This document shows, piece by piece, positions 43,401-64,000 of a stretch of DNA of 64,000 bases. This stretch comes from Cyanophora paradoxa CCMP329. Lineage: Eukaryota > Plantae > Glaucophyta. The notes beneath the pieces are model-generated. The model did no database searches. It worked only from the letters and a program-made list of their open reading frames with translations, and was not told the origin of the DNA. The position numbers and the translations under genes are program-made. The stretch lies in the NCBI GenBank assembly GCA_004431415.1, contig QPMI01000026.1:82064-146063 (forward strand), read 5' to 3'. Numbering within the stretch: the stretch's first letter is position 1; the number at the start of each line of letters is the position of its first letter.

Positions 43401-45786
43401 CGGTCAGGCTGATCGCTGTCCTCCAGACTAACGTTAACTTGTAAGTGATCGCGAGTCGCTCACGTGCGCGTTAGATTCCGGCTGATCTAATTCTGCTCGC
43501 CAAGGCGGCCGCGGGCAGCCTCCTCGATTGGGCTAACTTGCTAGAGCTCTTGATCCAGCTCCGCCTGGCGCCCGGGCGCAGAGAGGCGCAGAGAGGCTGA
43601 ATTTCAGGCTAAGAAGTCGGAGCTCATGAAAGACCCCTGCGCGGAAGAAAAAGCGGGGCTCATTCACGCAGCCGAGTCGCGCTATCGCTTCTCGCGCCGC
43701 GCTTCGAAGGGCGGGAGCAATGGAGGCGTATGCGACAGCCCGATCGCGCCGTCCTGCTCGATCTGCTTCCGCCATTGCAAATTGCGGGTTCGTGCGCGTG
43801 CGCCAGCGTCCGAAGAGGAGCTGCGGCATCGTGCCGCAAAGCTGACAAGCCCGCGGCGCTCCAGGTACCGTAAGGAACCTGCGGCTGGAAATCGGGACTG
43901 CGCCGGCGCGCTGCGGGCGGGCGGGCACGCGCCCCGGCCCGCCCGCTCGGTAGGGTCGTCTCCACGCGCGGAGGCGCGTGCAAGCGCCCCTCTCCGACCA
44001 CCCGCGCCGCCCCCGCGCCCGCCGCGCGCGAGGCGCCGCTTGCATATGCCTCCCGGCGCCCCCGCCGGCACCCCGCGGGGTCGAGAGGGCCGGCGCCGGC
44101 TCCCACACAGCGCGGGGCCGGCGCGCCGGTCCGAACCGGTCATAGGCTCCGCCCCGCGCCGCCGCCGCCGGCGACGAGAAGCGCCGCGCGCGCGCGCCCG
44201 GTCCGCCCCGCCCGCCCGCCCGCGCGGACCCCGGGAGCGGCAGGCGGTGGCGGGTCGGAGCGGCGGCGACGCTGCTGGGCGCGGGACGGGCCTCGAGGAG
44301 ACGCCCGCCTCGAGCTCGGGCGGCGGCGCGGGCGAGCACGGAGAAGGGTGGGCTCGAGGAGGGGCTCGTCGCCCGCGTACCCCTCCCGGCCTCTGCGTCG
44401 CCCAGGCGCGTACCCCCCGCCCCGGCCAGACCCGCCCCGGGCCCCCTCCGACGCCCGCGGCGCAGGCGGCGACGGGCGGCGCCGGTGCCTTTACCCCGCG
44501 AGCTCCGCGTGCACCCGGTCCCGCCCGCCCGCCGGCGAGCTCCGCGCGCCCGGCGCCGGCGACGACCCCTCCCCCCCCGGTCCTCCCTTCGTGCTCGGCC
44601 GGCGGGGGCCCTCCCTCGCCGGCCCGGGCCGCCCCAGCGACCCTTCCCCGCGACGGCGCGGCGCGGGCGGCGGCGGGGCCGGGGCAGCGGGCCCTCCCGC
44701 CTCTTCCCCAGTCTTCCCCACGGCAGTCTTCCTCCCCCCGGGGCCCTCCCGCCTCCCCCGGGGCAGCGGCGGCGCGCGGCGCGGCCGGCGGTGGGGCCGG
44801 CCGCCGTTCGGGCGAGAGGCCGCTCATCAGCCGCCCGAACTCTCCGGCTCCCTCGCGCCTGTACCCCGCCGTACCTCATTCCCCCCTCCAGACCCTCTCG
44901 GACGCCCGTCTTCCGGGGTACCCCCTCTTCTCCTCCCCTAAACGGCGCCTTCGCGCCCGCCGCGCGCTCGCCTCCGGCCGATGCTCCGGGTACCCCCCGC
45001 TCGTGCGCTCCCCCTACCCCCTCTCCGCGGCCTCTCCCTCGATCCTCTATTGATTCCTAACCGTGTCCAGGCGAGGGCGGTACTGCAGCTGCAGGCGACG
45101 GCGGTTGCGCCGCAGAGGTCGCCGTCGATCGCGCCGCCGCCCTCCTCCTGGTACCCCCCTCGAGCATCCCAAGCCGCGGGGTACGCGGGCGCCGCGGGCG
45201 GCGCGCGACCTTTTTCCCTCTACCCCATCGTTCTCGACTGAGACCTCTGCTCTCGGGTACCCCCCTCCCCGCCTAAAACTTCCCGTACCCCCTCCGACCC
45301 CTCCTCCCCTCCCTCCAGCTCTCGGAACGGGAACAGCTGCGGCTGCCCACGATCGGGTACCCCTGTGTCTTCCCCAGGTACTCTTTCTCCTTCTCTCTCC
45401 TTCCTCCCTCATCCCCCTTCTCCTTATCTGACTCCCCCACTCCCGTGCAGGTACCCCCTCTCCTTCCCCAGGATACCCTATACGGCACGGCTCTCTTCAT
45501 TCGGGTACCCCCCCTTCTCTTCCCCCGTGTGTGCTGTTTCTCCTTCTCTCTCCTTCTCTGACCCTCGCCCCCCGGAAAAGGGACCCCTACCCCCCCGCCC
45601 TCCTTCTCAGGTACCCCCCTTCCTCCCTCCTCCCTTCCGAGCCCTCCGAGCCCTGAGCCGTATCTGAGGGGCGAGCGCAGGCGGCGCCGGGTGCCTCTCC
45701 GAAAGCGCAGCAAGGCCGGCGGCAGAGCCGGCGGCGGCAAGGCCGCGTCCTTACGCGCGGCGCGGAGGGCGGGTCGGCTGTCAGCG

Positions 45787-47616
45787 CGGACGGCCCCGCC
45801 CGCCGCGGCCGCGCGACGGGGCGAGCCGCCGGAAGGGCCGCCAGGGCGGCGCGGGCGGAGCTGACGCGCCTCGGGGCCAGGGCAGCGCTGGCGGAGCTGG
45901 CCGCGCCGGTGCGGCAGGGCCGTGTCGTCGGCCGCGCCGTAGCGGCGCTCCGCGCCCTCGAGGCCGGCCCGAGGCCGCCGGGGGCGACGCGGTGCGCGAG
46001 GCCGCCCGCGCGCTCGCGCAGACGGGCGCTGAGACCGCCAACCCCGGTGCCCTCCGAGCGGCGCCCGCGCTCACCTGCACTCCTTTCTCACGCCGCGCGC
46101 GTTCCAGAGGCCTTCGCGGAGGCGCTGTGGCGTGCGGGCGGCGGCTACGCGCTCTACGGCCTCGTCTCGAGCCGCGACCTCGAGCTCTCGAGCTTGGGAT
46201 CTACGCGTGGCGGCCGCCGGCGGCGCCCTCTCGCCGGGGGCCGACGAGCTGCGGCGGGCGCTGCTGCCGGCCGCCGACATCGCCGCGCGCGTCTTCGTCG
46301 CTCTGGCGGCCCTCGAGGCGCCCCCGCCGTCAAGCGCCCCGCCAGCGCCGCCGCCCCCGGCGCCCCACGGGCCCCGTCCACGCCCCGGCGCACGCCCGGG
46401 CTCCGCTGCGGCGGCGGCGGCGGGGCGGGGCGGGCGCTGGCGCCGCGGCGGCCCGGGGACGAGGCCTCAGAGGGCCGCCGCCGCCTCCTCCTCGCGGCCG
46501 CCCGCGTCCTCCACGCCTACGCCCTCGGTCCGCCCCCGCCCCCGAGCCCTCGCGCACGTACCCCCCTCATCTGAACGAGCGGCCCGCGCGGGGGTACAGA
46601 CTTCGAGGAGCCGGCGTGCCTGCGCCGGCCCGACGTGCACGAGGCGCTGAGGGCCGTCGCCGCGGGCCCGCCCCGCCGCGCCCGCAGGCGCCCCCCGCCC
46701 CCCTCCGCGAGGCCGCGCGCTCCCTCGAGGGCGTACCCCTCCTCCGCCTGCTCGCCCGCTCCGCCCTCCGCGCCCTCCGCTCCCTCCGTGCGTACCCCCC
46801 CTCCCCCCCCAGCCGATCTCATGGTACCCCGCAGCGGCGAAGCACGTCGAGCGGGCCGAGGCCGGCCGCACCGGCGAGCGATCCCTGTACCCCCGCCGGT
46901 ACCCGTACCCCTTCGCCTTCCTCCCCACCCCGCAGCCGACGCTCCGCAGGAGCTGGAGGCGGCGGGGGCGCCGTGGGGCCGCCCGCTGCCCTCGGAGCTG
47001 ATGGTCGCGACGGTGGGCGCCGCCGGCTTCCGCCCGCCCGCCGGAGCGGCGGGGGCGAGCTGCTCCGCGCCCGCCTCGCGCCGGGCCCGCCCCGCCCGAC
47101 GGGGCGGGGGCGCCCTGGCTGCTGGAGCCCCCGGGGCGCCGGTGGGCCTCCCGGTGCAGCGGAGCCCCTTCCGCCCCGCGTCGGCGGCGAGCCCCCTCGC
47201 GGAGCACCCGGCGCGCGGCCCCGCCGCCCGCCAGGCCGCCGCCGCCGAGCGCCGCCGCGCCCTCCACGCCCCTCGCCGGCCCCGGCCGGCCCGCGGCCCG
47301 CGCGGCCGGCCCCGGAGCCGGCGCTGCAGGCGTTGGCGGGGCCGGCGGGCGGCGGGCGGCGGGGGCGGCGCGGGTCGGGTCGACGCGGCTCGCGAACACG
47401 CTGCGGCGGCTGCAGGGCGGGGCCGGCGGCCCGGCGCCCTCGCCGCTCTGGCGCACCACAGAGTAGGCACCCCGGGAACTCTGCGACCCCGTGTCCCGCC
47501 GCCCCGCCGCCCCCGGCCCCGCCGCCCCGGGCCCGCCACCCCGGGCCCGGCCGCCGGCCCCGGCGCCGGCCGCCGCCGCGCCGCCCGGCCTCTCGCCGCG
47601 AGCACCCTCGAGCGCC
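45787..47616 (+). repeat. About 1.8-kb direct duplication, copy 2 (many 1-nt indels)
   Basis: Same exons and introns as 35198-37007, but frameshifted. Confidence 0.9.
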
Positions 47617-48416: not shown

Positions 48417-50094
48417 GTAGAGGGCTGAGGGGCGGCGTCGTGCGAAGTCCCGATCGGGGGGGTCAGCTGAAGCGAGGAGGAGGAGGGGGAGTCGGCTGCT
48501 TGCAGCGTCGTAAGTGGTTTGTACACGCTGGGTGCAAAGAGAGGGACGTGATGGAGGGCTGCCCCGCGGGTATCGGCAACGCTCGCGCTTGTTTGGTCAT
48601 GCGCTTGGGCGTCTTGCGGCCGGCCGCCTTTCTTTTCGCCGTAGGTACGGGCGGGGCTGGTGCAGAGGTGGGGGGGGGAGGGGTCACGGGGCGCGGGCGT
48701 TTGGGTGCCGGGGCGGAGGGAGTATCAGCTGTCCGTTTACGCGAGGCAGGCGACGGCCGTGTTCGTTTCGGGGGAGGGGCCGGGGGGGGCGCCGGAGCGG
48801 GGCTTTCGGAAGGTTGAGTAGTGTTCGAAGGGCCCGCGGGCGAGGCGGGCAGGGTGCCATTGTCGGATTTCTCGTGTGACTGTCGTGCTAGGGTTACCGC
48901 AGGTTGGAAGGCAGGGCAGGAGGTGATCTCAAGGCGGGCGGGGCATTTGCTCCATCTGGCGTCGGAGTGGGCCTGGAGGGCAGCTGCGGAGGCGAATCGG
49001 CCCCCCACCTACCCTACCGCCGCGCGGGGCATCGATATCGCCGGACTCGGGATTAGATATATCGATTGGCCCCGGCCCTCGTGATCAGATCCCCCGGCCC
49101 CCGGAAAGCTTCCCCACCGTACCCGTTAGCTCTCTTCTAAATTCGAAGCCGCGGAATTCTAAGCCACCCCGGGCTCCGCTCGGGGTACGGGTCCCGATCG
49201 CCAGTCCTTCGACGCGTGCGCTTTACATTTGTCAGCGCCTCGCGCGCTTGCAGATCCGGTAATCTACCCGGCGCGAGCTCGATCGAGCTAGATCGGGAAT
49301 CCGCCAAAATGGATATCAATATTCATATATATATCGATATCTACGATGTATGCTCGAGTCTCACATGTACTACGGTACAGTGCTCAATATTATTTCTCCA
49401 TGTAAGGAGGATTCGATGTACAAGTCGACTTGCGTTCGGCGATCAGGTCACGGGTCGACGTCTCCGGAAATCCGCCGTCCATGCCATGATGGCCAGGCTC
49501 CAGCAAGCCAGAACTACTCTGTGCAGTACGTGTTTACTAATTATAAGTTACTAGTTACAGGACGAAATCGATGCAGGCGTCCGCTTCGACGGCATCAATC
49601 GCGAGCATCTGCTAGGATTGCAAGTGGCCGTTTGAGTTTCCCGTGAATATCCAATGAATATTACTTCGAGCGAGATTCAAATTAAAAGATCATGAGCGCA
49701 CCGCGGATTCGAACTCAAGGTCGGAGTCCAGGTCGGCGCAATTCAAGTCCTCCTCGAGATCTATATCCGCCCCGGCGAGCTCGCCCTCGAGCTCGAACTC
49801 GGCGCTCACGGCCTGCACACCCGCGACCCGAAATTAAATCATATATATGTGGGCCTTTGTGAAGCGTTGAGCTCTCGAGCTTGCCCCTTCGCTGTCAATG
49901 CATTGTTAACCCTCGGAGGTTGCATGAGTCACGCGTCGCGGAGGTTTGGGTGTTATATTGCGATCAGGTACACGCTGCACTAACAGGGGGGCTAGCACTA
50001 ACCGACGCGGGGAGTAACAGCCGGTGTACCCCTCGGGGGGCCTCCCGGCCTCTAACGATGCTCAGGCTCTAACTGAATGCTGTACCCCCCGCTG

Positions 50095-50831
50095 TTACTG
50101 CCCGAACCTTCCGAACTTGCGTAATTCGGCCTCGCCCTGTACCCAGTGGCTGGTGTCGTCCATCCATTCGCGTACCTCCCTCTGACGCTTGAGTGACTCA
50201 CGCTGCTCGGGGGTAGGGGAGGGGGGGCCTTCGAGGCGGGGTGGGGAAGGGGTACGGTGGCAAAATTCAGCCACTCGGGGGTATGCCGAATTCGCCGTGA
50301 ACGATCCTCTGCGGTGTGAAATACCGGTCGCTGCTCACGGCCAAGTGGAAGAACGCGCTCCTGAGCCCGGAGAGGAAGCGTGGTTGCATGAATGGCTGCT
50401 GGAGGGACTCGTCGCGCCAGGGGCTACGAAATCAATGATACGCTGCTGTACCTGCGCGGGCAGGGCAAGGATCTGGCTCTTGCGGTTCGCAAAGGCCGTC
50501 CACAGCGCTTGCAGGTCGGCCCAATCGCCGTTCAGATCCCTGCGTTCGCGCCTCAGGTACGATCTCGGGTTCTCTGTCATACCCATCAAGCCCGCGGCCC
50601 TGATCATCTCCCTGTCCGGGAGCTCTCGCTCGTCGTGGAATTCGTCTCTAATCCAGCGCACAAGGTAGAGCACGCGCTCCATGAAGTTCTCCGCCGGCGA
50701 GCCGCCCCTGAGGACGTGCGCCTCCCCTCCAGCACTGCGTTCGCATCCTCCAAGTCCACGTTCCGCTGTCGAATCTCCCCGTCCAGGTCGCCGTTGTTGT
50801 ACAGCACGTCGGACTCGCGTGTTCGCGCCAT
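50095..50831 (-). CDS. ORFan paralog 1 (frameshifted in this assembly)
   Basis: MARTRESD..FMERVLYLVRWI..LWTAFANRKSQILALPAQVQQRIIDF..YPEW..REWMDDTSHWVQGEAELRK. Confidence 0.55.
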
Positions 50832-50865
50832 GCTCGCGGCTCGGTGAGAATTTATACCTGTACCC

Positions 50866-51557
50866 CTACTCGCGGTCGGGGTACCTGTCGCCGGGCATCA
50901 GCCTCGCGCGCTTCCGCATCTCCGCCTCCCCGGGTAGCCAGTTCTTCGGGTCGTTGCTCCACTCCTCCCATTCGCGTATGTCCCGTCTGACGTCACGCGG
51001 GCGGGGCGTTTATCGGTGGGCGGGCGGGGCTGGCAGGCCTGGCGCGGGGGTTGAGGCCCCTGTTCCACGAGTACTCGGGGTACTCTTCCCATCCCAGGGG
51101 TACCAGATTCATCGGAATTGGCTCAACTTCGAATTGGGCTTTTTGACGTGATAATCATAGTTTGTGACATACGCCGTCACAGCCGAGCGCAAGCGCGAGA
51201 GGTCGCGCAAATTTACGTCGTCCCATTGCGAGTCCCTTGCCTTCGCGTACCACTCGAGGATTTGCATGCGAATGTGGTCCGGGAGGGTCGAGAGTATGCT
51301 GAGCTTGGAGCCCAGGGCGAACCAGATGCGCTTGAACTCGTCGATAATCCTGCCCTCGTCGTGGCTCCGAACGTAAAGGCCCCGCCAGAGTTGTAATGCG
51401 TGTCTAGCCACCCTGCCCGGGCCAGCTCTAGCACCGGCCAGGGTTGGCGCTGTCGATTCGGTCGCGAGGCCTGCTCTACCACCCAGCGTCTAAGGTCCTT
51501 GACCTGATCTATGAACTGTGCGATCACGTCCCTGGGCGCTTCCTCTGCATCCGACAT
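50866..51557 (-). CDS. ORFan paralog 2 (frameshifted in this assembly)
   Basis: MSDAEE..FIDQVKDLRRWV..IWFALGSKLSILSTLPDHIRMQILEW..YPEY..REWEEWSNDPKNWLPGEAEMRK; colinear with paralog 1. Confidence 0.55.
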
Positions 51558-51606
51558 TTGCAATTGCACACATCAAGAAATTCTAAACGCTACTGCGAGC
51601 TACGCT

Positions 51607-52238
51607 ATGCATACCGATACAAATTGCGAGACTTTGCAACAGGGAGCGCAGCGTGGCACGCGGCGCGCCGTGAAAAACTAACTGCATCTAATTTTGCGGC
51701 TGCGTGCGCATAAACCCCTGGAAATCCAGGCCCGCCTGTGGGCGGAGCTAAGCGGGATAGCGGAGGAAAACAACTTTGACAACCCTGCCCTAACCTATGG
51801 CATGACTATGAGCCCCTCGCGGTCTCTCTCTACAAAACGTCGAACAACAACGTGGACGTGCAACATACTGGATTGCACGAACATAAGGAACTGCCCTTCC
51901 TGGCGGGCAGCCCGGACGGGCTGATTGGAAGCGATCGTATACTTGAAATAAAATGCCCCTACAAACAAGAACTCTACGAAAAGGTCCCAACTTATTACAT
52001 GCCCCAGCTCCAGGGCCTGCTGGACATAACGGGCCGCGAGTGGGCCGAACTTTTTTGCTTCACTCCTCTGCGCGTGCAAACGTGGTACGTCAGACGGGAC
52101 GAGAGGTACATCAAGCTCATGAGGAAGTGCTTACATCTATTTTGGATGCACGTCAAGGAGGCACGCGCCCGAGCCCTACAGCGATCGAATGAAGTCAGAG
52201 AACCTCAGCGAGGAGCAGGCGGCGCTGCGCGAGTTTAA
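51607..52238 (+). CDS. YqaJ-like viral recombinase / lambda-exonuclease family nuclease (about 4 single-base frameshifts)
   Basis: LQQGSAAWHAARREKLTASNF..G..YEP.A..Y..GLHEHKELPFLAGSPDGL..ILEIKCP..PTYYMPQLQGLLDITGREWAELFCF. Confidence 0.9.
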
Positions 52239-52410
52239 GTCGTACGCCCTCCTCTAGTGTCCGGACCTTTCCAATACTCTATATGATTATTGGAGGGTCC
52301 GGACACGTCTCTTGGTCAGACTACTTCTGTCCAGGTCTTTGGAATCTTAATATAAATTTTCCCGGGACCCGGGACAGGGCTTGGTCGGACTCACCGTAGC
52401 TTGGTGTAGC

Positions 52411-55400
52411 TCAGGCCCAGGCCGGGTAGGCGAGTCTGTAATGAATCAGACCGCGCAGGATTTGGTTGAGCTGCTCGGTGCAGGGGGCGGGAAGGCGAGG
52501 CCGCGGAGGCCATAGAGACGTAGCGGAAGGGTGGGGGAGGCGGCCCCTGTTATCCCACATGGCGTCCACTATGGCGTTGTGGACCACTTGCTCTGGAGGG
52601 CGGGACGGGCCTGCGCGCACCGTTTCAGGGCCCTCAGCAGCCCTCGAAGATGTTGGAGTTGGCGTGCACCAGCGGGAGGGAGGGCTGGGACGGCGGCGGC
52701 GAGCCCGGGGCCGAGCCCTGGGTGGCGAGGGCCTGCGAGGGCGCCGGCTCCAGCTCCATCTCGAACATACCGCCCTCGACGTCGACGGTCACGGGCGGCG
52801 AGGCCGGGATCGCGCCGGCCTGCTGCGTGGCGGGACCTGAGCCGAGAAGTTCTCGAGCCGCCACTCGCGGCAGCCCTGGCACTCACCTGGACGAAGACGG
52901 TGCGGTTGGCGACGGGCGGCGTCGGCAGGGCCTGCGCGGGGGCGTCACTCACAGAAGCCGAAGGCGCCGGCCTTGTGGGCGGGGCGTCGGGTCGCGGGGC
53001 GTGCTATAGGCCTCCGAGCCCTCCGATTCAGAGTCACTCACCGGGCTGAGAGGGTGGGGTGAGAAGAGGCCGAGGCGGGCCTTCTTGGCGGGCAGGAGGT
53101 GGAGCCGTTGAGGGCGCAATCGGCGCCGTGGGCGCACCTCTCTCCGTAGGTGGGGCAGAGGGCCGGGGCGAGGGCGCCGGAGCCAAGGGCGCCGGAGCCG
53201 AGGACGCCGGGGGCTGGAGGAGGCGGTGAGAGGGGCCGAGGAGGAGAGGAAGGGGAAGGGCGCGGGCACCGGCGCCGGGACGAGGCCCTCCTCCAGCAGC
53301 CGCATCTGCGCCTCCTTCGCCTTCTCGTCGATGCGGGCCTCGAACGTCGCCCAGTTGAAGCCGACGGCGTCCGCCTCCGCCAGCTCGGGGAGGCCGTGCT
53401 CGTCGAACGCCAGCGCGGGCCGCCCGCTGAAGCCGAACGGGGCGGGGGCGAGAGCGCGTTGTCCCCGACGCCCCAGACGGCGCTGAACGCCGCATCGTCC
53501 CAGCGCGCCTCCGCCTCCGCCTGGCCCTCGTCCCTTGCCTCGTCCACCTCCTTGGCGGAGAGCGACCCGATCTTGATGATGGAGGCCTGGATCAGCACAA
53601 ACTCGCGCTGGAAGAATTGGACGAGCGGGATGGTAACTGCGGAGAGGGGGTGAGCGGGGAGAGCGCGGGGCGCAGGCCAAGGGCGGGGCGCAGGCCAAGG
53701 GCGGGGCGGACGCACATTCGATGCCGTAGGCCACCTCCTTGATGTAGCGGCCCCGGCGGCCGATCTCCTTGGCCAGCATGCTGCACTCCTTGCGCGCCGG
53801 GTGGCCGTGGCCCACTCCATGGCGATCATCGCCTTCGCCAGACGGACGCCCTCGATGTGCCACTCGTCCATCAGCGCCTCCAGCTTGGCGCAGATGCGCA
53901 TCCAGAAGAAGACGCGCTTGAGCTTGTCGCGGTCGAATTCGGCGTCGCCGCTCTTGCTGCCCCAGTCGCGCAGGTCCGTCTCCTCCGCCTTCTTCACCTT
54001 CTCGTACCAGCACTTGATCTTCTCCGCCTGGCGCTGGAACTCGTCCGCCCGCGCCGTGAGAACGTCCGACTCCTCCTGCGCTCCGAGGGCCCGGGGTCAG
54101 GGAGGAGAGGCGGCTAAGCGGGCGGCGGCGGACCGTGTGCGAGAGCTCGCCGACGATCACGGAGATGGCCGCCGAGAGGATCTCACGGGCGCGGGCCGGC
54201 CCGTTTGGGTGGCCTCGCGCAGAACCTCCTCCAGCTTCAGCACGGCCGTCCGCGCGAGATCGCGGTGGCGCTGGCGGGTCTCGTCGCTCCGGCCCTGATC
54301 CACGAGAAGCTGGAGCTGGGGCCGCATGCCGGAGTCGCAGACGCTGGCGTACTTCAGAAGGGCCGCGCAGGAGAGCACCTTCTGCACGCTGACCAGCCAG
54401 TACGCGTAGCCCAGCGGGCTCTCCGCGCTCGGGTTCTCCCCGACCTGCGGACGCGACCTTAGCGCGCGCAGGGGCAGGGGAAAGGGGAAAGGGCGGGCTC
54501 TCGCGCACGTAAATGTCATCGGCGCAGGAGAGGAACATGTGATCAACGACGTCGAAGAAGCCGCCGGACGGGAGCGTGCCGACGCCGTGGTACGCGCCTT
54601 GGATGGTCTCGCCGGCGCAGATGCCGGCCTGGACGGTGACGGTGTACTGCGAGGCCGGCGGCCCCTCCTTCACGTAGACGAAGTTGAGGTCGTACTTCTT
54701 GGCGTACGTCGGGTTGATGCGCTTGGTGACGATGACGTAATCGCACCGAACGCCGAGGCCGGACGGGCTGGCCTTCTCCTTCTCCGTCACCGACGCCAGG
54801 CACTGATCCCGCGCGATCAAGAGCTGCAGCGGCCCGCGCGTGAGCAAGCGCGGGCACGCGAGCGCAGGGAAGGGCCCTCACCCCGTGGGCGCCGCCGCTG
54901 CCGGATTTGAGGTCCGCGAGGAACTCCTTCTGCTCCGGAGTGCCGGAGAAGATCGCGCGCGGATGGAAATCGCGATGGAGCGCGATGCTGTTGAAGCAGC
55001 CCGCCGCCGCATTGTCGGACATCAGCAACAGCGCCACATCGCCGTGCGTGAAGCCGTACTTCGCCTTCACATGCTCCGGCAGCTCGTGAATGCTGTAAGG
55101 CACGATCTGCGCGCGGGCACGCGAGCCGGGCATGTGAGCCGGGCCGAAGCGGTGCGGGCGAAACCGCGAACCTCGTTGAACTTATTCACCGGCGTGAACT
55201 GGCCCTTGGTCTTCAAGCGCTTCGGGTGGCCGTCCGTGTTCTGGATCTTCTTCAGCCCGCCGAACGGCTCGAAGCGCGGCACGCCGGCCGAGTTGAACAC
55301 GCTATCGCAGGTCATCGCGTTGAGCGCCTCCTCCGCCGACAGGCTGCCGAGATCGCGGGCTATGCTGTCCTGCTCGCCGGGCTGCTGCTGCTTCGCGCAC

Positions 55401-55423
55401 GAGCGGAAGGTCGCCGCCTGCAT
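52411..55423 (-). CDS. Large intron-containing ORFan of the viral-like element
   Basis: Exons with GT-AG boundaries (..VNKFNE/IVPYSIHEL..; ..GGAHG/LLIARDQC..; ..ADDIY/VGENPS..). Globular N-terminal half, helical middle; no family recognised. Confidence 0.6.
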
Positions 55424-55607
55424 CGCGAGTGTTACTGCCCGCGATGTCTCAACGGATTCCGTTCAACGTCGTACCCCCGCTGGCTTGTTCCCTCCCCAAC
55501 TCGCGAAGACTCAGACTTGAAGCCCGCTTCCCCCCCCTCAAAATGCGTACCCCCCTTGGCTCGAACCCCGGTCGGTTTCTCGCTTTTTTTGACTGCCCAG
55601 TCCGGCG

Positions 55608-58400
55608 ATGCAATGCAGGCCGCTCGTTCAAATCGGCTGGGAACTTGGCGCCAGAACCTTCGCAGCGCGCGCAGCACTCCCAGCAGAGCGCGCGCAGCAC
55701 CGGCGGCAGCATCGGCGGCAGCAGCATGTCTCGGCTCGCGCTCCCTCGGAGATCCCGGCTAAGCTGGCGAAGAACACGCTGTACGACGTTCTCTGCGTCG
55801 GCGACAGCTTCGGCGTCGATTGGACGGTGTTCGAGGCCGGTATCAGCGACCAGGCGAAGGAGGCGCAGGCGCGTGCGCTGGAGGATGGCATGCAGTTCAG
55901 CCCGAACAGCAAGGATGTGCTGCGCAAGACCGAGCTGGCCGAGCGCAAGCGCAAGCTGCCGCGGCGCGGACCTTGAACCTCGAGGGCGCCCCGGCCCGTC
56001 GGTGCAGTTCTCCATCGACTCCGTCCTGTCGCGGCTGCGGCTCGCGGAGGTGCTCGCTGCCTCTTTCTCCCTCGCGCGCCCGGCTCGCAGCGGCTGAGGC
56101 GCCGCCGCGCTCGCAGGACGCGGACGTGCGGCGATGCACGCGGCGCTGAACATGACGGAGGAGAACTTCGACACACCGAGCAAGCCGAAGCCCGGGCGCG
56201 ATTCCGACGCCCGCCGGCTGTTCGCGGCGCAGCGCCTGCGGCTGCTCATGGGCGCCGTGCCCCGGCACATCGCCAAGGGCGAGTGGCGCACGATTGCCTG
56301 CTGGCGGGCCGGAGGAGTTCTACTTCAACCGCATGGCGGAGCGCCCCGCACCTGCTCTGGCTGCTGGTGCTCAGCTCGGACCCGGCCTACACGCCCGAGG
56401 TGCGCCCCCGGCCGCCCGTGCAGCCGCGGCCGCCCCTCCCGCCGACCCCCGCCGGCCCGCAGAGGCTGGCGAAGGGCATCATGGGCGTCGAGGCGCGCTG
56501 CATCATGCGGAACAGCCGCGCGTTCATCACGCGCCACGAGAGCTCGGCGGTCTGGGGCGAGCGGCCGGACACCGGCGTCCTCACGACGCCTACGCCATCC
56601 GCATCGTGCTGGAGGCGGCCTGCCGGACGTGCCGGGACCGCCACGGGCCCAGGGCATCTGCGCCTTCGACCTGGTTCCTGAGTTCGAGGTGCCCGGCGTC
56701 ACCATCGGCGACCGCGTGCAGGTGCGCCGTTTCTATTTGGATGCTATTTAGATGCTATTAGACTATTTAGATGCCATTTAAACCCCCTCGCAGGTCATCC
56801 GCCGGTGCTCGATGCCGGACTCGCACGGGCGGCCCATGATCCACGGCGCCGTGAAGTACGTGGTGCCGCGGCGCACCCTCGCCCTCACCTTCTTCGTCCC
56901 CGTCTTCGACAAGGCGGCCGCCGCCGCCGCGCCGCCGCCTCCCGCCCCGCCCCATGCTCGCGGCCGCGGAGTCCTCGGATTCCGACTCGGATTCCGAGGC
57001 GGAGCGCGAGGCCGAGGCCGCCGCCGCGCGCCCGGGCGCTGGACTTCACGGAGGAGGAGCTGGAGCGGGCGCGGAGCCTGCCGCGCGCCGGCCAGGCGAT
57101 GGCCGCGGCCTTCCAGGCGGCGATCGGCGAGGCGACGGCCTCCGCCTCGGGCGCCCGGGCCGGCGGCAGCATGATCACGGCGGAGGCCTCGCGCGCGCCA
57201 TGCGCGTGGCCCAGGCCCAGGCCCAGGCGAAGGGCAAGGGCAAGGGCAAGGCCGCCTACATCGACCTGCGGTTCGAGGAGGAGGAGGCGGGTGCCCCGGC
57301 GGCGCGGCGCGATCTCGGCGAGGAGATGGAGGCGGCGGCCCCCAAGGCGGCCGGTGCGCCCTCCCCGCCCCTAATTTCTGAGCTAGGGCGTTCCAGAGGC
57401 GCAAAGGAATGACCCTGCCCACAGAGGAGGAGCTGGAGGCCGAGCGCGAGATGGAGATGGAGGCCGCGCTGGCGGCGGCGCGGACGCGAAGGCTCGCGCG
57501 AGCTGGAGGTGGCGGAGGAGTACGCGATGAGCTGGAGCGCTGAGCGCGAGCGCGAGGGCGAGCCCGATGCGGAGCTTGCGGCGACGGTGGAGGCGGGCGG
57601 GGGACACCTTCGAGCCCGAGCCCCCCGTCGACGAGTTCTACCCCCTCCGCCCTCCCCCTCCCTCGACGGCGCCCGCCGCCGCCCATCGAGGAGTTCTCGG
57701 ACGACGAGCCCGGCGACGCCGGCCCCAGGCCGCCCCTCGTCTCCCCCGCCGCCCGCCCGCCCCCGTGCCCCCCGCCAGCCCCGCCGCCTCCGACGTCTCC
57801 TGGCGCCGAGCGGCAACCCTCGCCTTCAGTCCCTTCCGCCCTCGCAGCCCTCGCAGCGCCGCCGCCCTCCGTCAGGGTACCCCCCTCGCCCGCCCATCCC
57901 CTCGCCGCCGCGGGGCACGCCCGTCGCCACGCCCGCCTCCTCCTCGCCACATGCCCCTCCGCCCCTCCGGCCCCCCGCGCCGGCCGCCTCTCCCGCCGGG
58001 CCCAGCAGCGGCGCGAGCGCGAGCGGCAGCTGCTGCGCGATCAGCGGGCGGAGGCGGAGGCGGACCACGACGACGGCCAGGCGTCGGAGAGCGACGGCGA
58101 GCCGCCGCGCGCCACCAGGCTGGAGCTGGCGCGGGCGGAGCTGGCGGTGCAGCCGCGCGAGGCGCCCGAGATCGACATGTCCAAGTACGACGACGTGACA
58201 ACGTACAGCAAGGACAACAAGTCAGAAGGAGGCGGCCATTCAGGATGCGCTCCGCCTCTTCGTCAAGAACAACGTGGCCCCGCCCCCCTTAGCTGCGCGC
58301 CCGCCCCTTAGAGGCCGGAGGCGCCGTGGCCCAGCTGCTTAAGGCGCTGGGCCCGAGCCGCCTTCGGCCGGTGCGCCCCCCTCCCGCGTTCGAACCCGCT
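55608..58400 (+). CDS. Intron-containing, frameshifted coding region; probably the N-terminal part of the helicase gene
   Basis: Continuous coding-like blocks (NTLYDVLCVGDSFGVDW; RLAKGIMGVEARCIMRN; GICAFDLVPEF; VKYVVPRRTLALTFFVPVF) followed by an acidic/Ala-rich linker. Confidence 0.45.
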
Positions 58401-60400
58401 AACCCCTTTTGCCGGCGCAGCGGATCGTGCGCCAGAGACCTACGGCCCGAACTCCCCGCCACCTTCTACGTCGAGCTCCCGAACCTCTTCGTGTACGACA
58501 AGGTCAGCGCGAACAGGCACGCCGGCGCGGGACGATGAGGAGTCATCCAGCTGCTGGCGATGACCTTCCACAAGACCTACGAGTCCAACCCCGGCTCCTT
58601 CGAGTTCACCTTCTCGAAGGAGGTGCTCTCGGGGCGGACGCGCACGTTCGTGAGGAGTCCCTCCAGCTCGAGACGTCTGCCCCGAGATGCCGTCATCCCG
58701 GCTTCGCCTTCGCCTGCGACACGCGTGCGCCGCCCGTACCCCTGCGCCCGCCCCGTACCCCCGCCGACGCCCCTTGCGCAGATTTCGTGGTGCGGGCGCC
58801 GCAGGACAGCACGGGCAGCGCCTGCGTCCTCGTCATGACGCACGAGGAGGCACGGGAGCGGTACGCGGGCTACATGAACACCTGCTACATCCAGGGGCGC
58901 CTGCCCGCGGGCATCGAGGAGGCGACCGAGACCTGCGACTGGCCCACCGTGTACGGCATGCTGCACCCCTTCATGCCCAACGTCGTCAAGCACCTGGCGG
59001 ACAACGGCTACGTGACGGCCGACGAGTTCGGCTACGCGGCGGCCGTCCTCTACGCCTTCAACCTCGTCGGGCCGTGGAACTTCTGCGACAAGCCCGTCTT
59101 CGACCGGGAGCCGCGCGCGGAGATCGAGCCGCCGTCCGAGGGCGCCATGCTGCAGTACTGCGGCATCATCAAGGGCCAGTCGGGCACAGGCAAGTCGATG
59201 GTGACGCAGATCATGACGGAGTGCCTGCCGCCGGGCCGCGTCTGCGTCTACCGCCCCTCCAAGGGCTCGGCCTTCTCGGAGCACGGCGGCGAGGAGGCGA
59301 TCTGCATGGTGATGGCGGAGGGCCTCGACCCTAAGGCCTGCTCGGAGGAGGAGCTCAAGATGCGCTCCGGCGACGCCTACTCCCGCAACTTCAAGAACGT
59401 CCGCGGCGACGATGTGCGCACCAAGGCGACGCGCAAGGTGCTTGTCATCGTCTGCAACAGCTTCCCGCAGGTGCGCCCGTTCCCCTGCCCCCCTTCCCCT
59501 TCCCCGGCGCCCTTTCTCACTTGCCCCGGCGCAGCTCGAGAACCGCATGCTCGAGTTCTTCGCCCGCGTCGTCCTGATCCCCCTCGACCACAAGCCGGCC
59601 AAGAAGCGCACCTACCTCCACTCCGACATCCGCGAGAACGAGCTGCCGGCGCTCATGGTCGCGGCCTTCACCTTCGCGTGGAAGATCATCCACGCGCTCT
59701 CCGACGGCAAGGCCTCCTGCATCCAGGCCTTCGAGCCGGCGTGGCTGCGGGCGCAGCGCCTCGGCTTCTGGCAGGAGACGGCCTCCTGTCCCTCACCCGC
59801 TTCATCATCGCCCACTGCGCCGTCGACCCCACCACTACGTCGCCGCCCCGAACACGGAGGGCTACATGACGAGCGTCGCGGGCATCGTCGAGTACATCGC
59901 GCGCACGGAGGGCCCCGACACCTCCGCCGCCGTCGGCGCCGACATCGAGAACGGCCGGCTGGACGAGACCCTCGCCGGCTTCGGCTCCTGGTGCCGCCCC
60001 TACTCCTACAAGCTCGGCGGCGTCTGGCAGACCTACATCCGCGGCATCGTCCCCAAGGCCCCGCTCTCCCTCGGCGAGAGCCAGCCGGCGCTGGAGGCGA
60101 TCGCGATCCCCGTCGCCCAGTTCAAGGACCCGGCGCCCGACGTCGGGCCCTTCCTCGTCAAGCCCCACACCAAGGGCAAGGGCAAGCGCACCCGCAACTC
60201 GGCGCCGGCCTTCCTCCCGCCCCAGCCCCCCGCCACGGCCCCCCAGCAGCGCCCCGGCCAGCAGCGCATCGACGAGATGCTGCCGCGCCAGGTCCGGCCC
60301 GCGTACCCCCGCCTTCCCTCCCGTACCCCCCTCCCCCGCCCCCCTCCTGATCCAAGGGCAGGGTACCCCGACGAACGGCGGCGCGGGCCCGAGCGGCTAC
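58400..60400 (+). CDS. Superfamily 3 (D5-like) DNA helicase domain, intron-containing
   Basis: Walker A IIKGQSGTGKS, Walker B CMVMAE, motif C VLVIVCN, Arg finger FFARVVLIP. Introns at about 58726-58780 and 59471-59534. Confidence 0.85.
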
Positions 60401-60889
60401 GACGGCGAGCTCGGCCTCGCCGCCGAGCCGGCCCCAGCCCTCCCCGGCCCCGGCGCCGTCCTCACCGCGATCCAGGGCTTCGGGGCCCAGCAGGAGGCCG
60501 AGCGGCGGGCGCTGGCGGCGCGCCAGGCGCGCGAGGCGGAGGAGCGGCGCCAGGCCCTGGGCCCAGCGCCTGCAGGAGGCCACGCCTTCCGCGCCGAGCT
60601 GGAGGCGGCTTCCGCGCGGAGCGGATGAGCGGGCGGAGGCCGTGGAGAGCTGGCGGGCGTTCGAGGACGGGACCGTGGAGCTGGCGAAGGGCCTCGGCTA
60701 CAGCTACCGGCGGGCGCCGGTGCCCACCTCGTACGCAAGCGGGCGCGCGGGAGGCCTCGCGGGCAGATCGACGCGGCGGAGGAGCAGGCGGCGCGCGAGG
60801 AGGCCGAGGACAACGCGCGCTTCCGGCACCTGCACCACTGAGGCCCGAGGCGGTATTTTTTCTCAACCCTCCCTCAATTCGGTCCCGCG

Positions 60890-61140
60890 ATGGCCTTCGA
60901 AGCTTATCCTGCCCACTACTCGCTAGGAGCCTCGCCGCGACCCTCACCTGGCTCCTCGGCGGCACCCCCACGGCCTCGGCGGTCATCGGCGTGGGCTTCG
61001 GCTACGCCGCCAAGTCCTCTACGCCCCGGCTGCGCCTCGCAGGCGGCGGCCGGCATGCGCCCCGCCGGGCGCTAACTTTTCAAAGTTCATTCTCCCCTCC
61101 CCCTTTTCCGAGTTCCGAGTCCGTTGGCGTTCCCTTTTAA
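60890..61140 (+). CDS. Small putative membrane protein (frameshifted)
   Basis: MAFEAYPAHYSLG/LAATLTWLLGGTPTASAVIGVGFGYAAK: two hydrophobic stretches. Confidence 0.4.
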
Positions 61141-61170
61141 ATTTTCTTCATTCTCGTTACACGTTCGAAG

Positions 61171-61650
61171 ATGTCGAGCGCGGTAGAGAAGCTGCTGTGC
61201 ACCGTGTTCAAATCGGATTCGCGATGCAGCAAGATCGGCGAGGCGGCGAGGGCTAAGGGTGGGGCGGCGGCGGAGGGGCCCAGGGTGAGGGCGGCGGATC
61301 CCGCGCCGCCGTCGCTGAAAACGATCAAGGGGGCGGGCAAGGGCAGGAGCGTGGGGGCGCTGCCCCTCGTGGCGATCGCGCCGGGGCAGAGGGAGGCGGC
61401 GCACGCGGCGACGGCGGCGCTGGCCGCGCGGCGCCAGGCGGAGGCCTACCCGTGCCTGGGCCGGGGGCTGCACCCGCCGGCCGGCCGCCCCTACGCCGTG
61501 AGCGCCTACTTCGACGAGGCCAACCGGCTGAGCTGCCAGGAGCTGTGCGACAACCGCATGCGGCGCGCCGTGGACGGGCACCTGCCGCTGCTGGTGGCGC
61601 TGGGCGGCTCGCTCCTGATGGTCTGGTACCTGCGCGGCCTGGTCATTTAG
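61171..61650 (+). CDS. Small Cys-containing protein with C-terminal TM anchor
   Basis: Intronless 159-aa ORF ending LPLLVALGGSLLMVWYLRGLVI. Confidence 0.7.
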   Translation: MSSAVEKLLCTVFKSDSRCSKIGEAARAKGGAAAEGPRVRAADPAPPSLKTIKGAGKGRSVGALPLVAIAPGQREAAHAATAALAARRQAEAYPCLGRGLHPPAGRPYAVSAYFDEANRLSCQELCDNRMRRAVDGHLPLLVALGGSLLMVWYLRGLVI

Positions 61651-61687
61651 ATAGTTTTTCGAAACCCCGGTTGGAAGCTAGCCAAGG

Positions 61688-62012
61688 ATGAGCTGGCTCG
61701 ATGCGCTGCTCACGAAGACCTTCGGCCCCAAGGGCCAGCCGCGCCTGCAGTTCGGCGAGATCAACGCGGCGATTGGCGCCACGGTGGAGACGAAGACCGA
61801 GAGAACGTCCTGCGCGGCGACGGAGGCGCGTGGGCCGACATTGCGGCGGGCGCCCTGGGCTCCGCGCTCACCGCACCGGGCAAGGCGGGCCGCGCGCTGA
61901 CGGACGGGCCGAGCGCTTCTGGCACTGGCTCAAGGTGGCCGTTGTCATCGCCGCAGCGGTTGTGGCGGGTCTCCTGGTGCTCGAGGCTCGCGCGCTATTT
62001 TCTAAACGCTAG
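61688..62012 (+). CDS. Small protein with C-terminal TM anchor (frameshifted)
   Basis: MSWLDALLTKTFG... /FWHWLKVAVVIAAAVVAGLLVLEAR. Confidence 0.6.
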
Positions 62013-62028
62013 GTAAACCGAGCGAACC

Positions 62029-62402
62029 ATGCGCGGCGGCTCTTCCCCCCGTGTTTCCTTCGCTGAGAACCCGGTGGCGAACGCAGTCGCCCCTACCCCC
62101 TGGAGCCCGGAGTGAAGCTGGAGCGTGCGAACGCAGTCTCCGTCAAGAAGGCCAAGCGCACGCTGGCGCTGGAAGTCCCGGTCGCGGAGGATACGGAGAA
62201 GGTTGCATTCAACAAGCGCAAGACGTACAAGGCGATACGCGAGGGACAGCTGCTGCCCACGGACTCGGTTCCCGGGCTGCCGGGCACCACGGCCGGCGAG
62301 CTCCTAGTGCGCAACCTGCGCCTGCAGTACGTCTCCCGCCTCCGCCGCTCCAAGGCCAAGAAGGCGCGCCTGGACTCGGGCGATAGCAGCTCTAGCTCGT
62401 AG
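62029..62402 (+). CDS. Small basic ORFan (frameshifted 5' end)
   Basis: ATG at 62029; K/R-rich ..VKKAKRT..FNKRKTYK..RLRRSKAKKARL. Confidence 0.5.
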
Positions 62403-62429
62403 GGCTCTGTACTGTTGTATTCAATGCCT

Positions 62430-62714
62430 TTACCAGTTCCTGTTCCTATCCCAGAGCACGACTCGGGTGAAGGGCACGGTCATAGCGAACATGAACTCGG
62501 CGAACTTGGCAAAGTTCATCAGGGTTCCCAGGCGGGGATCCTCCCAGTAGATCGCCTCGCGCAGCGCCTCGTAGACGCGCATGAGGGAGCGCTCGTTCTC
62601 CGTCGCGAAGGCGTCGCCGGGCTCGTCGGGGTCGGGATCCGTGAGCTCGGAGTACTCGTCCGAGCTGCCCGCGCTCTCGGCACCTGCGGCGGGGTCGGGC
62701 GAGGGGTCGGGCAT
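62430..62714 (-). CDS. Small acidic ORFan
   Basis: 94-aa intronless ORF with ATG and coding-like composition. Confidence 0.6.
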   Translation of the reverse strand: MPDPSPDPAAGAESAGSSDEYSELTDPDPDEPGDAFATENERSLMRVYEALREAIYWEDPRLGTLMNFAKFAEFMFAMTVPFTRVVLWDRNRNW

Positions 62715-62755
62715 TCTTTGCTGGTAGAAGGGCTAGAAGAGGGACCAGAAAATCA

Positions 62756-63103
62756 CTAGCAACACGGGCGCCGGAACTCCATCGAGTCGCCGCGCCAGTA
62801 CTTGTTGCCGGAGGCGAGCAGCTTCATCGGCTCGCCCGTCGAATCGTGCTTCCAGGCCTCGCCGTCCCAGAGGGCCGTGCCGCCGTCCTCTAGCTTGAGG
62901 CGGTGGCCCGGCTCGAGACGGTTGCCGTCGAGCATGCGGCCGGCCATGAGCGCCAGGTCCCACTCGGTGAGGTTGCGCTGCTCTGCGGGGGTGAGGCCGC
63001 GCTCGACGCGCTCGGGCTGGCGCGCCTCGCGCTCCATGCGGCTGAGGCCCACCAGGAAGAAGATGGGCAGGGCAAAGGCCATGAGATCTAGCAGGGCCTC
63101 CAT
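62756..63103 (-). CDS. Small ORFan with N-terminal hydrophobic anchor
   Basis: MEALLDLMAFALPIFFLVGL...; 115 aa. Confidence 0.6.
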   Translation of the reverse strand: MEALLDLMAFALPIFFLVGLSRMEREARQPERVERGLTPAEQRNLTEWDLALMAGRMLDGNRLEPGHRLKLEDGGTALWDGEAWKHDSTGEPMKLLASGNKYWRGDSMEFRRPCC

Positions 63104-63399
63104 TGGGCAAGACTTAGAAAAGGTTCCGGACCAGGCCCGAGAGCTGCGGGCCCAGGCGCCGGCGGCGTAGTAGAGCGCGGCCGCCGCGCCGCAAGGATCA
63201 GCAGGCGCGGCGGGCCGCGCGCCGGCTCCTCCAGCGTCAGGTCCACGGTCTCCGGCCCGCGCGCCGGAGCCGCCAGGATCTCGGGCTCGGAGCAGAGGGA
63301 CTTGGGCCCACGGCGGCGGCGCTGCTTGGGCGCCGAGGCGGCGGCGGTGAGAAGGTCCTCAGGCTCCTGCTTGATACCTGCGCAGTCAGTAAAGTCCAT
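63088..63399 (-). CDS. Small ORFan with NLS-like and SUMO/SIM-like motifs
   Basis: MDFTDCAGIKQEPE..PKQRRRR..ETVDLT. Confidence 0.4.
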   Translation of the reverse strand: MDFTDCAGIKQEPEDLLTAAASAPKQRRRRGPKSLCSEPEILAAPARGPETVDLTLEEPARGPPRLLILAARRPRSTTPPAPGPAALGPGPEPFLSLAQWRPC

Positions 63400-63484
63400 G
63401 CTTGCTGGGTACCTTGGAAAATTGTGGGAGGCGTCCGGAGATTGCGAACGTAGGAGGGGGGAGAAATGACGCGGACGCAAAAGA

Positions 63485-63825
63485 TTCCGTCATGGGTTTT
63501 CCGTCATGGGCTGGAACTTGGACTCGGGACTCGGCCGGGAATTCTCCTGGTAAGTTCGAGACTTGAACTCGGCGGGGTACCCCCTATGTCCAAATGCCCT
63601 AGTGTCCCAGAGTCCTAGTGTCCTAGTGTCCTAGTAGTACTAAGTAGTACTAAGTAGGTGGTATCGATATCTAGCTAGCTAGCGCTAGCGCTTGCTTAAT
63701 TAATTACCTGAAAGGTTGCGGAGGTTGCGGACGCGTCACAATTCCCGTCATGGGTTTTCCGTCATGGGCTGGAACTTGGACTCGGGACTCGGCCGGAATT
63801 CTCCTGGTAAGTTCGAGACTTGAAC
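63485..63825. repeat. Two about 83-bp direct repeats (63485-63568 and 63741-63825) with short tandem repeats between them
   Basis: TTCCGTCATGGGTTTTCCGTCATGGGCTGGAACTTGGACTCGGGACTCGGCCGG..GAGACTTGAAC occurs twice; (AGTGTCCT)n and (AGTAGTACTA)2 lie between the copies. Confidence 0.92.
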
Positions 63826-64000
63826 AAGAACGACGTACCCTCCTATGACCGTTCTATACTACATTAAAGTATTCATTGATTGTGAATAACGATAATGTCA
63901 TAGCAACTTCAGTATGATGTCATAGCAACTTGAAATTACCTTCAAGTCGAATAGAGGGGTACAGAGTCGGTACGTTAGACTTGACAAAAACACGTGTATT

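Follow-up and report, generated by a model that had tools for sequence, protein, structure and literature searches.

Polinton-like viruses (Polisuviricotina) occur as multi-copy chromosomal integrations in protists (PMC10120064), and their replicases are mosaic modules in which a superfamily 3 (SF3) helicase is fused to an N-terminal domain (PMC10120064; bioRxiv 10.64898/2026.10.13.758929). Transpovirons and mobile modules that join an archaeo-eukaryotic primase (AEP) to an SF3 helicase are replication modules without a recognised virion module, and AEP-SF3 genes have been proposed to move with the help of a neighbouring nuclease (bioRxiv 10.64898/2026.10.13.758929). Polinton-like viruses have been recorded in the glaucophyte Cyanophora paradoxa (PMC12220804), and giant-virus insertions are known from the genome literature of this alga. 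We analysed a stretch of 64,000 nucleotides of C. paradoxa CCMP329 (contig QPMI01000026.1, positions 82,064 to 146,063; the window), of which the last part, from about 49,842 onwards, is occupied by an element that is like Polinton-like viruses in its size class, its multi-copy chromosomal integration in a protist and its fused SF3 helicase.

Positions 49,842 to 64,000 and beyond are one copy of a dispersed C. paradoxa element family of at least 14 kb with dozens of copies. This is a real, young, expressed, intron-bearing and virus-like mobile element family, and its gene set could not be matched to a described class. The data show many copies at unrelated loci with a fixed gene order and one sharp end, transcripts that are spliced, genes for a YqaJ nuclease and a protein with an SF3 helicase domain, and mosaic subfamilies. 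An earlier reading made from the letters alone (the sequence-only reading) had proposed a virus- or plasmid-like element of unclear class. The dispersal, the defined end and the phage- and virus-type genes agree with that proposal, but they do not establish a virus, since the window shows neither a virion gene nor the right end of the element. The features of the window copy are:

49842..49870, plus strand: left terminus, starting in a TA-repeat palindrome (49,840-49,849)
49842..50334, no strand: left subterminal region, non-coding (no open reading frame, ORF), with copy-to-copy variants in variant contigs and loose ends
50335..51557, minus strand: three small orphan ORFs (ORFans) of ~165, 85 and 150 aa, broken by indels in the assembly; a variable module, replaced in some copies
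51607..52257, plus strand: YqaJ (lambda-exonuclease-like PD-(D/E)XK) nuclease, 211 aa in intact copies
51730..52633, minus strand: spliced 3' extension of the large ORFan transcript, antisense across YqaJ; lower limit approximate
52634..55423, minus strand: large ORFan gene whose gene models give ~750-800 aa; coding region interrupted by 8 introns
53,285-53,364 (minus strand) and 55,810-55,889 (plus strand): 27-codon motif common to both large genes, 77.5% DNA identity, blastn E 4e-11
55424..55725, no strand: 302-bp spacer between the divergent large genes, whose start codons lie at 55,423 (minus) and 55,726 (plus)
55726..60841, plus strand: replicase-like (helicase) gene, ~1,500 aa, about 8 predicted introns
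60853..60926, plus strand: intron just 3' of the helicase stop, GT/AG, with RNA joints at ~60,853-60,930 in two runs
60,890-61,075, plus strand: small ORF, its start overlapped by the intron 60853..60926
61171..61650, plus strand: 159-aa ORFan with a C-terminal hydrophobic segment; exact gene model, cluster of 7
61688..62012, plus strand: ~105-aa ORFan with a C-terminal transmembrane-like segment, frameshifted in the assembly
62029..62402, plus strand: basic ORFan of ~125 aa, covered by an RNA contig
62430..62714, minus strand: acidic 94-aa ORFan; exact gene model, cluster of 11
62756..63103, minus strand: 115-aa ORFan with an N-terminal hydrophobic segment
63088..63399, minus strand: ~100-aa ORFan, an ORF call
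63450..64000, no strand: right region, non-coding, 48% GC, with a direct repeat, short tandem repeats and palindromes

Element genes were found on at least 41 contigs, counted by contig name. When the helicase exon was used as query, 24 of 901 candidate proteins were matches; they are C. paradoxa gene models without exception, lie on 21 contigs and are 67-100% identical. Many copies are 98-100% identical in the helicase core, and this search gave no helicase homolog outside C. paradoxa. EukProt entries with C. paradoxa accessions include proteins identical to those of the element. The large ORFan exon gave 22 proteins among 114 candidates and, after cluster look-up, 27 contigs, and YqaJ and two small ORFs added further contigs to the family count. 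Helicase and ORFan genes lie at most two gene numbers apart on 19 of the 21 helicase contigs. The order YqaJ-ORFan-helicase is kept on two named contigs and YqaJ-ORFan on a third, and on one contig YqaJ, the ORFan, the helicase and the 159-aa ORF are four consecutive gene models. In one run of accession numbers a single gene model stands between YqaJ and the 159-aa ORF; this numbering suggests that some copies are deleted derivatives.

The left end is sharp, lies at ~49,842 in TA-rich sequence followed by TGTGGG, and has different flanks in different copies. The contig of the unique flank ends at 49,867-49,869 in all four short-read runs. Directly to its right the depth jumps, with ratios of 39, 37, 39 and 25 between the first long element contig and the flank. 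Contig depth is not copy number, as the tool itself warns, but the depth ratio nonetheless agrees with the contig count. In the three runs with the relevant row, 3-5 contigs per run enter unlike flanks before 49,842 (agreement ~0.5), which places the end there. The sequence-only reading had begun the element at 50,095, about 250 bp too far to the right; its proposed copy-number check came out as a multi-copy family, with at least 41 contigs and a depth 25-39 times that of the flank. The TA-repeat palindrome may be a target site or the element's own end. At 64,000 the element is still multi-copy (depth ~3,000), so that the right end falls outside the window; the right region before it contains a direct repeat of ~105 bp (63,487-63,591 and 63,745-63,850, 92%). 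No terminal inverted repeat (TIR) was found within the window: the window has no second match to the element's initial 16 bases at 12/16 or better, and no inverted match to the left end. An IMG/VR scan with the left-end motif gave nothing. The motif GTACCCC was considered as a terminal iteron and rejected, as it is common in host introns. The unique flank itself (48,964-49,841) has 55% GC and many short palindromes, and further left, at 48,500-49,016, lies a separate repeat with a depth of ~720 against 57 for the unique flank.

Short-read contigs contradict many of the frameshifts in the window (163 indel rows, 12 of them listed), which are therefore mostly assembly errors. DNA joints at 50,241-50,432, 50,553-50,790 and 50,886-51,553 reveal alternative modules among the left ORFs, and the helicase falls into two subfamilies that are 93-98% identical over residues 1-300 and 51-81% over residues 601-1300; together these indicate that copies exchange modules. 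Substitutions between copies lean synonymous, with 10 of 21 classified ones being silent (taken from 40 of the 254 listed, where the frame was assignable; one site lies at a frame break), above the roughly one in four that is expected at random.

The identity of the YqaJ nuclease, already named in the sequence-only reading, is certain. The window fragment matches Pfam PF09588 at E 5.5e-13 and an intact copy at 2.7e-28, with 99.6 bits against a curated cut-off of 22, and PHROG 434 is matched at E 4.7e-17. Relative to the window, short-read contigs carry five single-base insertions in this gene, and intact gene models are available (P0065/P0087/P0092). The sole close relative found outside the family is the environmental protein P0067, 58% identical to the window fragment and 64% to the intact copy, which probably marks a related element in another host. 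It is encoded on an ENA metagenome contig of 1,912 bp, and the similarity includes the C-terminal tail of YqaJ. In a tree of 68 rows the element and P0067 group at 100/99, next to five phage-like contigs (96/85) and outside the sampled A32-linked giant-virus clade. On the phage-like contigs a gene adjoining YqaJ is presumably an ERF-like annealing gene, a label given by eye. On the low-GC viral contigs L020, L021, L024 and L028 the order A32-like ATPase, YqaJ, flap-endonuclease-like gene is conserved, these labels also being by eye. Searches with 1,549 ORFs from 81 viral loci matched nothing in the element but YqaJ.

The large plus-strand gene encodes a very divergent D5/P4-type SF3 helicase, in agreement with the SF3/D5-like assignment of the sequence-only reading. 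Its product consists of an unknown N-terminal domain, an acidic and proline-rich linker, the helicase and a winged-helix-like C-terminal part, with the SF3 core in the exon 58,782-59,470. Pfam returned a weak AAA_22 match alone and NCBIfam nothing on the full-length models, so that this protein escapes the D5 profiles of both; the large proteins were scanned by Pfam as wholes, and low-complexity linkers could mask weak domains. By tblastn a phage P4-type primase was matched at E 7, a weak score, over 97% of the ATPase exon, and hhalign against a profile of 11 phage P4/D5 primases gave 92.6% (E 4.6e-7, 136 columns), with Walker A, B, B', motif C and the arginine finger aligned in order within ~140 residues. 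In the matching hmmsearch none of 205 reversed or shuffled decoys scored. The top viral Foldseek match of a poor model of the helicase region was likewise an NrS-1-like (SF3-type) helicase, at E 7.8e-3. No primase domain (AEP, Prim-Pol or Toprim) was found in full-length family scans, the ESM Atlas or the phage tblastn; by eye, one stretch may be PriCT-2-like. The N-terminus had no usable ESM Atlas match, tblastn of the two unknown domains against plasmids and phages gave nothing useful, PDB sequence searches with the element proteins gave nothing significant, and an IMG/VR scan with the helicase gave nothing. A lone helicase match in a JGI metagenome was discarded as a false positive, being a repeat protein.

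By its sequence the large minus-strand gene is a true ORFan. Among 1.84 billion representatives it had three matches, all from its own family, and no outside homolog; PDB and IMG/VR gave nothing, and the best ESM Atlas score was 0.76. Its product has an alpha/beta N-terminal part, a helical middle and a low-complexity tail, and is predicted, with low confidence, to be helical over residues 274-545. Ideas formed by eye (a tyrosine-recombinase HxxR stretch, an AEP motif II, a fucosyltransferase-like motif) found no tool support and were dropped. Between the two large genes, the spacer is likely to function as a bidirectional promoter.

The three left ORFans had no significant match in Pfam, PHROGs or NCBIfam, and the same holds for family searches with the about ten small ORFs taken together. 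Small transmembrane proteins had been expected from the letters; three small ORFs do have a hydrophobic segment, with Kyte-Doolittle 19-mer values of 1.84, 2.56 and 2.15, a crude measure.

It was found that ten CT..AC segments of 56-185 nt are skipped in three of three RNA-like runs, from three studies, and kept in the DNA run. On the minus strand they read as GT..AG introns of the ORFan transcript, the strand being taken from the intron ends. Eight of the ten lie in the coding region and the rest beyond the likely stop at 52,634, where the 3' extension has introns at 52,436-52,620 and 52,068-52,134 and a compound joint at 52,161-52,394. For the introns of the helicase gene the support is indirect. 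One RNA contig needs 313 nt to span 508 nt of genome, and RNA contigs stop at the predicted donors 56,050 and 60,288. The sequence-only reading had described two large divergent genes with short introns and intronless small genes, and had proposed RNA splicing as a check. The splicing check was positive, with ten GT-AG introns skipped in the RNA-like runs and none in the DNA run, and the introns of the large genes hold, by RNA joints for the minus-strand gene and indirectly for the plus-strand gene. For the small genes the claim stands in part: two RNA contigs are colinear with the genome over 60,936-61,422 and 62,019-62,510, but with the joint at ~60,853-60,930 the first small ORF loses its start. 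The left ORFs had little RNA cover, which was not used as evidence. In the SF3 exon the RNA contigs match the window copy exactly, but they depart from it at the helicase gene's 5' end, so that the expressed copies are probably other, mosaic family members.

Introns of C. paradoxa are short, with a mean of 86 bp (PMC6704402), and the GC content, codon use and introns of the element are host-like. The element shows no CpG depletion, its observed/expected ratio being 1.03-1.10 and that of host genes 1.07-1.18. A GTGCG..CGTACCCC-type 5' intron motif is present at 1,914, 2,502, 41,945 (minus), 58,725 and 60,292, in host and element alike, and may mark a genome-wide intron family of C. paradoxa. 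That two helicase introns share this host motif suggests that they were gained in the host. Since the introns of the element look host-made in length class and 5' motif, they point to long residence in the host nucleus and not to recent infection.

The sequence-only reading had recognised no capsid protein, packaging ATPase, polB or integrase, and no capsid, A32 ATPase, polymerase or integrase was detected in the part of the element inside the window, to which the following negatives apply. No ORF had a family match to a double-jelly-roll major capsid protein (MCP), the large ORFan being the only ORF of suitable size. An A32 ATPase profile of the giant-virus type, built from at most 40 of 54 A32-like ORFs, had no match at E<1 in a set of 275 six-frame pieces and models. 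Tyrosine recombinases and rve integrases were without a match in Pfam, PHROGs and NCBIfam, as were DDE transposases with THAP/HTH, the ISL2EU hallmark. Pfam had no match to protein-primed DNA polymerase B (pPolB), and the full-length family scans none to any polymerase domain. No HUH endonuclease was matched in Pfam or PHROGs, and divergent HUH domains can escape Pfam (PMC10288648). HK97 capsid, portal and terminase gave no match with profiles that are not mirusvirus-specific and a fold model that is poor, and the mriyavirus set of MCP, ATPase, VLTF2, VLTF3, RuvC and HUH was not detected. An Rfam scan had no matches, and a sigma-70 promoter scan, which looks for a bacterial signal irrelevant to a eukaryote, was empty.

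On the part inside the window, the element could be placed in none of the classes with which we compared it; of their defining features, only its YqaJ and SF3 domains are established. It differs from Polinton-like viruses in that no MCP, minor capsid protein, A32 ATPase, pPolB, DNA polymerase A, AEP, tyrosine recombinase or rve integrase was detected, in having spliceosomal introns in core genes, and in lacking a TIR within the window. With transpovirons and AEP-SF3 modules it shares a replication module without a recognised virion module; transpovirons carry pPolB and a DDE integrase and AEP-SF3 modules an AEP domain, whereas the element shows neither, has YqaJ as its nuclease, and conserves a large intron-rich ORFan and about ten small ORFs. 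A contig with transpoviron-like and AEP-only elements (bioRxiv 10.64898/2026.10.13.758929) has a prefix that matches a C. paradoxa accession in PMC8502044, but those elements differ from ours in gene content. Mriyaviruses (Yaravirus, gamadviruses) resemble it in combining a PD-(D/E)XK nuclease with an SF3 helicase whose N-terminal domain is uncharacterised, in the lack of a DNA polymerase and in a predicted nuclear replication (bioRxiv 10.1101/2024.02.29.582850), but have 35-45 kb with MCP, ATPase, VLTF2/3, RuvC and HUH, none of which was found here. Mirusviruses likewise depend on the host nucleus and have GT-AG spliceosomal introns, of ~80 bp, but they have a mean genome of 265 kb, an HK97 virion module and introns enriched in virion genes (PMC12768974), of which our scans of these 14 kb found nothing. 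ISL2EU elements of the PHIS superfamily have a YqaJ ORF beside a larger gene and an AT-rich insertion site (PMC4482050); our element is three times larger, has a helicase, shows no DDE and is not in an animal. Replitrons and Helitrons are copy-and-paste algal DNA elements with intron-containing genes (PMC10288648), from which it differs in that no HUH domain was found; Replitrons would match only in the Rep domain, and were undetected in glaucophytes according to the same source. The phage P4-type primase-helicases and the YqaJ exonuclease/annealing pairs of phages are the source families of the two recognisable genes, in comparison to which the element has no recognised primase and is eukaryotic, intron-containing and chromosomal. 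Helitrons use a superfamily 1 helicase. In its way of working, the element seems closest to the replicase modules without a capsid that have been considered in connection with Polinton-like viruses (bioRxiv 10.64898/2026.10.13.758929). No description of the family was found in the literature searched, which left aside the supplements of PMC10120064 and PMC12220804, where it may be listed; no paper joining C. paradoxa with YqaJ was found, and one text supplement of PMC12344493 does not name the element genes.

We give an even chance to the reading that this is an integrative element of viral origin which has no capsid and relies on host polymerases for its own copying. Its own SF3 helicase, together with host primase and polymerases, would copy the element, which would re-enter the chromosome by recombination at TA-rich sites. 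The helicase may load on an origin in the terminal non-coding DNA, for which the right-hand direct repeats are a candidate, and unwind the element from there. A D5-type helicase without primase or polymerase implies reliance on host replication enzymes, as has been argued for mriyaviruses (bioRxiv 10.1101/2024.02.29.582850) and intron-rich mirusviruses (PMC12768974). The large ORFan is the best candidate for a strand-annealing or integration protein, and the spliced antisense tail of its transcript may hold YqaJ down in resting cells. Enzymes of the YqaJ/lambda-exonuclease family resect DNA ends 5' to 3' for recombination. YqaJ could thus provide single-stranded ends, which would also explain the module swapping between copies.

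Several points weigh against this reading. No integrase, recombinase, HUH or polymerase was identified, which leaves the integration step without an assigned enzyme, and neither movement nor a free form was observed. The right end and any target-site duplication lie beyond the window, and a capsid module past 64,000 is possible; the small membrane-type ORFs suit a virion at least as well as a transposon. For the helicase, hmmsearch scores are 8-9 bits, Walker B is non-canonical with one acidic residue, and the phage primase seed was chosen from the tblastn match at E 7. AlphaFold models of the ORFan core and the helicase region are of low confidence (mean pLDDT 31.6 and 34.1), and with these poor models Foldseek, a check suggested for the ORFans by the sequence-only reading, found nothing at E 0.001 in PDB and BFVD. 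The label RNA for the runs is a guess backed solely by the intron-skipping joints, none of the listed runs that hold the element being on record as RNA; the substitution tally draws on 40 of 254 listed, and the YqaJ tree is limited by long branches, by GC bias and by sparse sampling.

A bolder reading, possible but doubtful, is a new class of eukaryotic self-copying transposon, with a stand-alone D5-type SF3 helicase, YqaJ and an integrating protein of new fold and without capsid, DDE, tyrosine recombinase or HUH; it would have gained host introns over long residence in glaucophytes, would still be expanding, and would control its nuclease by the antisense tail. The main rival, held tentatively, is an endogenous nuclear DNA virus, either Polinton-like or from a new group. 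Its capsid, packaging ATPase and integrase genes would be too divergent to detect or would follow after the window, and its small membrane proteins would be virion parts. A virus-like look is given by the SF3 helicase, the nuclease, the densely packed small ORFs and the variable accessory modules; the multi-copy state continues up to 64,000, Polinton-like elements of 15-30 kb include helicases fused to unknown domains (PMC10120064), and such viruses exist in C. paradoxa (PMC12220804). However, only two large genes in 14 kb are big enough for an MCP, the ORFan is predicted helical over residues 274-545 (at low confidence), no A32 match was obtained, and endogenous viruses of this kind are stated to be intron-free (PMC10120064). 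The last 550 bp are non-coding repeats of subterminal look, and on two contigs ORFan genes are only 2-4 gene numbers apart, which leaves little room for a capsid module there.

It is unlikely that the element is a giant transposon, moved by cut-and-paste or by a recombinase, with the ORFan as a transposase that escaped recognition and the helicase and small ORFs as its cargo. ISL2EU does pair a YqaJ ORF with a transposase at an A|AT|T target (PMC4482050), and here YqaJ adjoins the ORFan and the left end is TA-rich, but the ORFan has no DDE or tyrosine-recombinase family match in Pfam, PHROGs or NCBIfam, the mean length of ISL2EU elements is ~4.8 kb, most begin with GG and they are reported in animals only (PMC4482050), and our searches found the nearest YqaJ relatives among environmental and phage-like sequences. 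The element's expression, its synonymous-leaning substitutions and its resemblance to the host in GC, codon use and introns would also fit a host gene cluster with domesticated viral genes, spread by segmental duplication or passively by another repeat. We regard this as improbable in view of the sharp end with unrelated flanks and of the absence of ORFan or helicase homologs outside C. paradoxa in the searches run; runs of two other organisms from the same studies were without element words (3/3 rows; not proof of absence). The sequence-only reading had allowed for cellular orthologs, of which the searches run found none, and for a chimeric join or contaminant. The latter is very improbable: the window has many indel errors, and the unique flank contig overlaps the element by 26-28 bases, below the 31-base bridging rule, but the same flank-to-element contig was rebuilt in four of four runs from 2012 and 2024, all 20 runs holding the element (14 studies) are of one organism, and gene models lie on at least 41 contigs.

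The remainder of the window is eukaryotic, with 60-80% GC, and its first 48 kb hold ordinary host genes by Pfam: a histone, an enoyl-CoA hydratase, a ribosomal S9/S16 family member, a WD40/Utp12 protein and an NPHP3-like protein with TPR repeats. Overlapping untranslated regions are frequent in C. paradoxa, and 11.5% of its genome is unclassified repeat (PMC6704402). An inverted pair of 1.6 kb (8,591-10,172 and 18,847-20,414, 95% identical, ~8.7 kb between the arms) has in both arms coding-like frames with Cys- and His-containing motifs; Pfam had no match for one arm. The pair may represent long TIRs or a second mobile gene present twice. By eye, the arm motifs may resemble those of papain-like or herpes-tegument deubiquitinase proteases. 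A direct pair of 1.8 kb (35,196-36,998 and 45,784-47,561, 92%), of which one coding-like frame had no Pfam match, brackets the NPHP3-like NTPase-TPR gene (37.5-43.1 kb). Within that gene, at 37,600-40,200, ~13 TPR exons recur with a period of ~200 nt, exon and intron being repeated as one unit. Additionally, a 255-nt tandem repeat is present at 28,197-28,961 (2.9 copies, 97% identical), and an inverted match of 127 nt (12,260-12,418 against 25,173-25,299, 92%) joins two coiled-coil-coding stretches, with RING/IBR-like fragments nearby at 16.3-16.7 kb and 23.9-24.6 kb.

Endogenous DNA viruses of protists have been surveyed by way of their capsid genes and with gene calling that does not allow for introns (PMC10120064), so that an intron-rich element without a detectable capsid would be missed. 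With an estimated 38 or so copies of at least 14 kb, the family would span roughly 0.5 Mb of the C. paradoxa genome. If the large ORFan is the integrating enzyme, it would represent a new recombinase fold. As the element is expressed in a culturable alga, the question whether capsid-less helicase modules move alone, raised in bioRxiv 10.64898/2026.10.13.758929, becomes testable.

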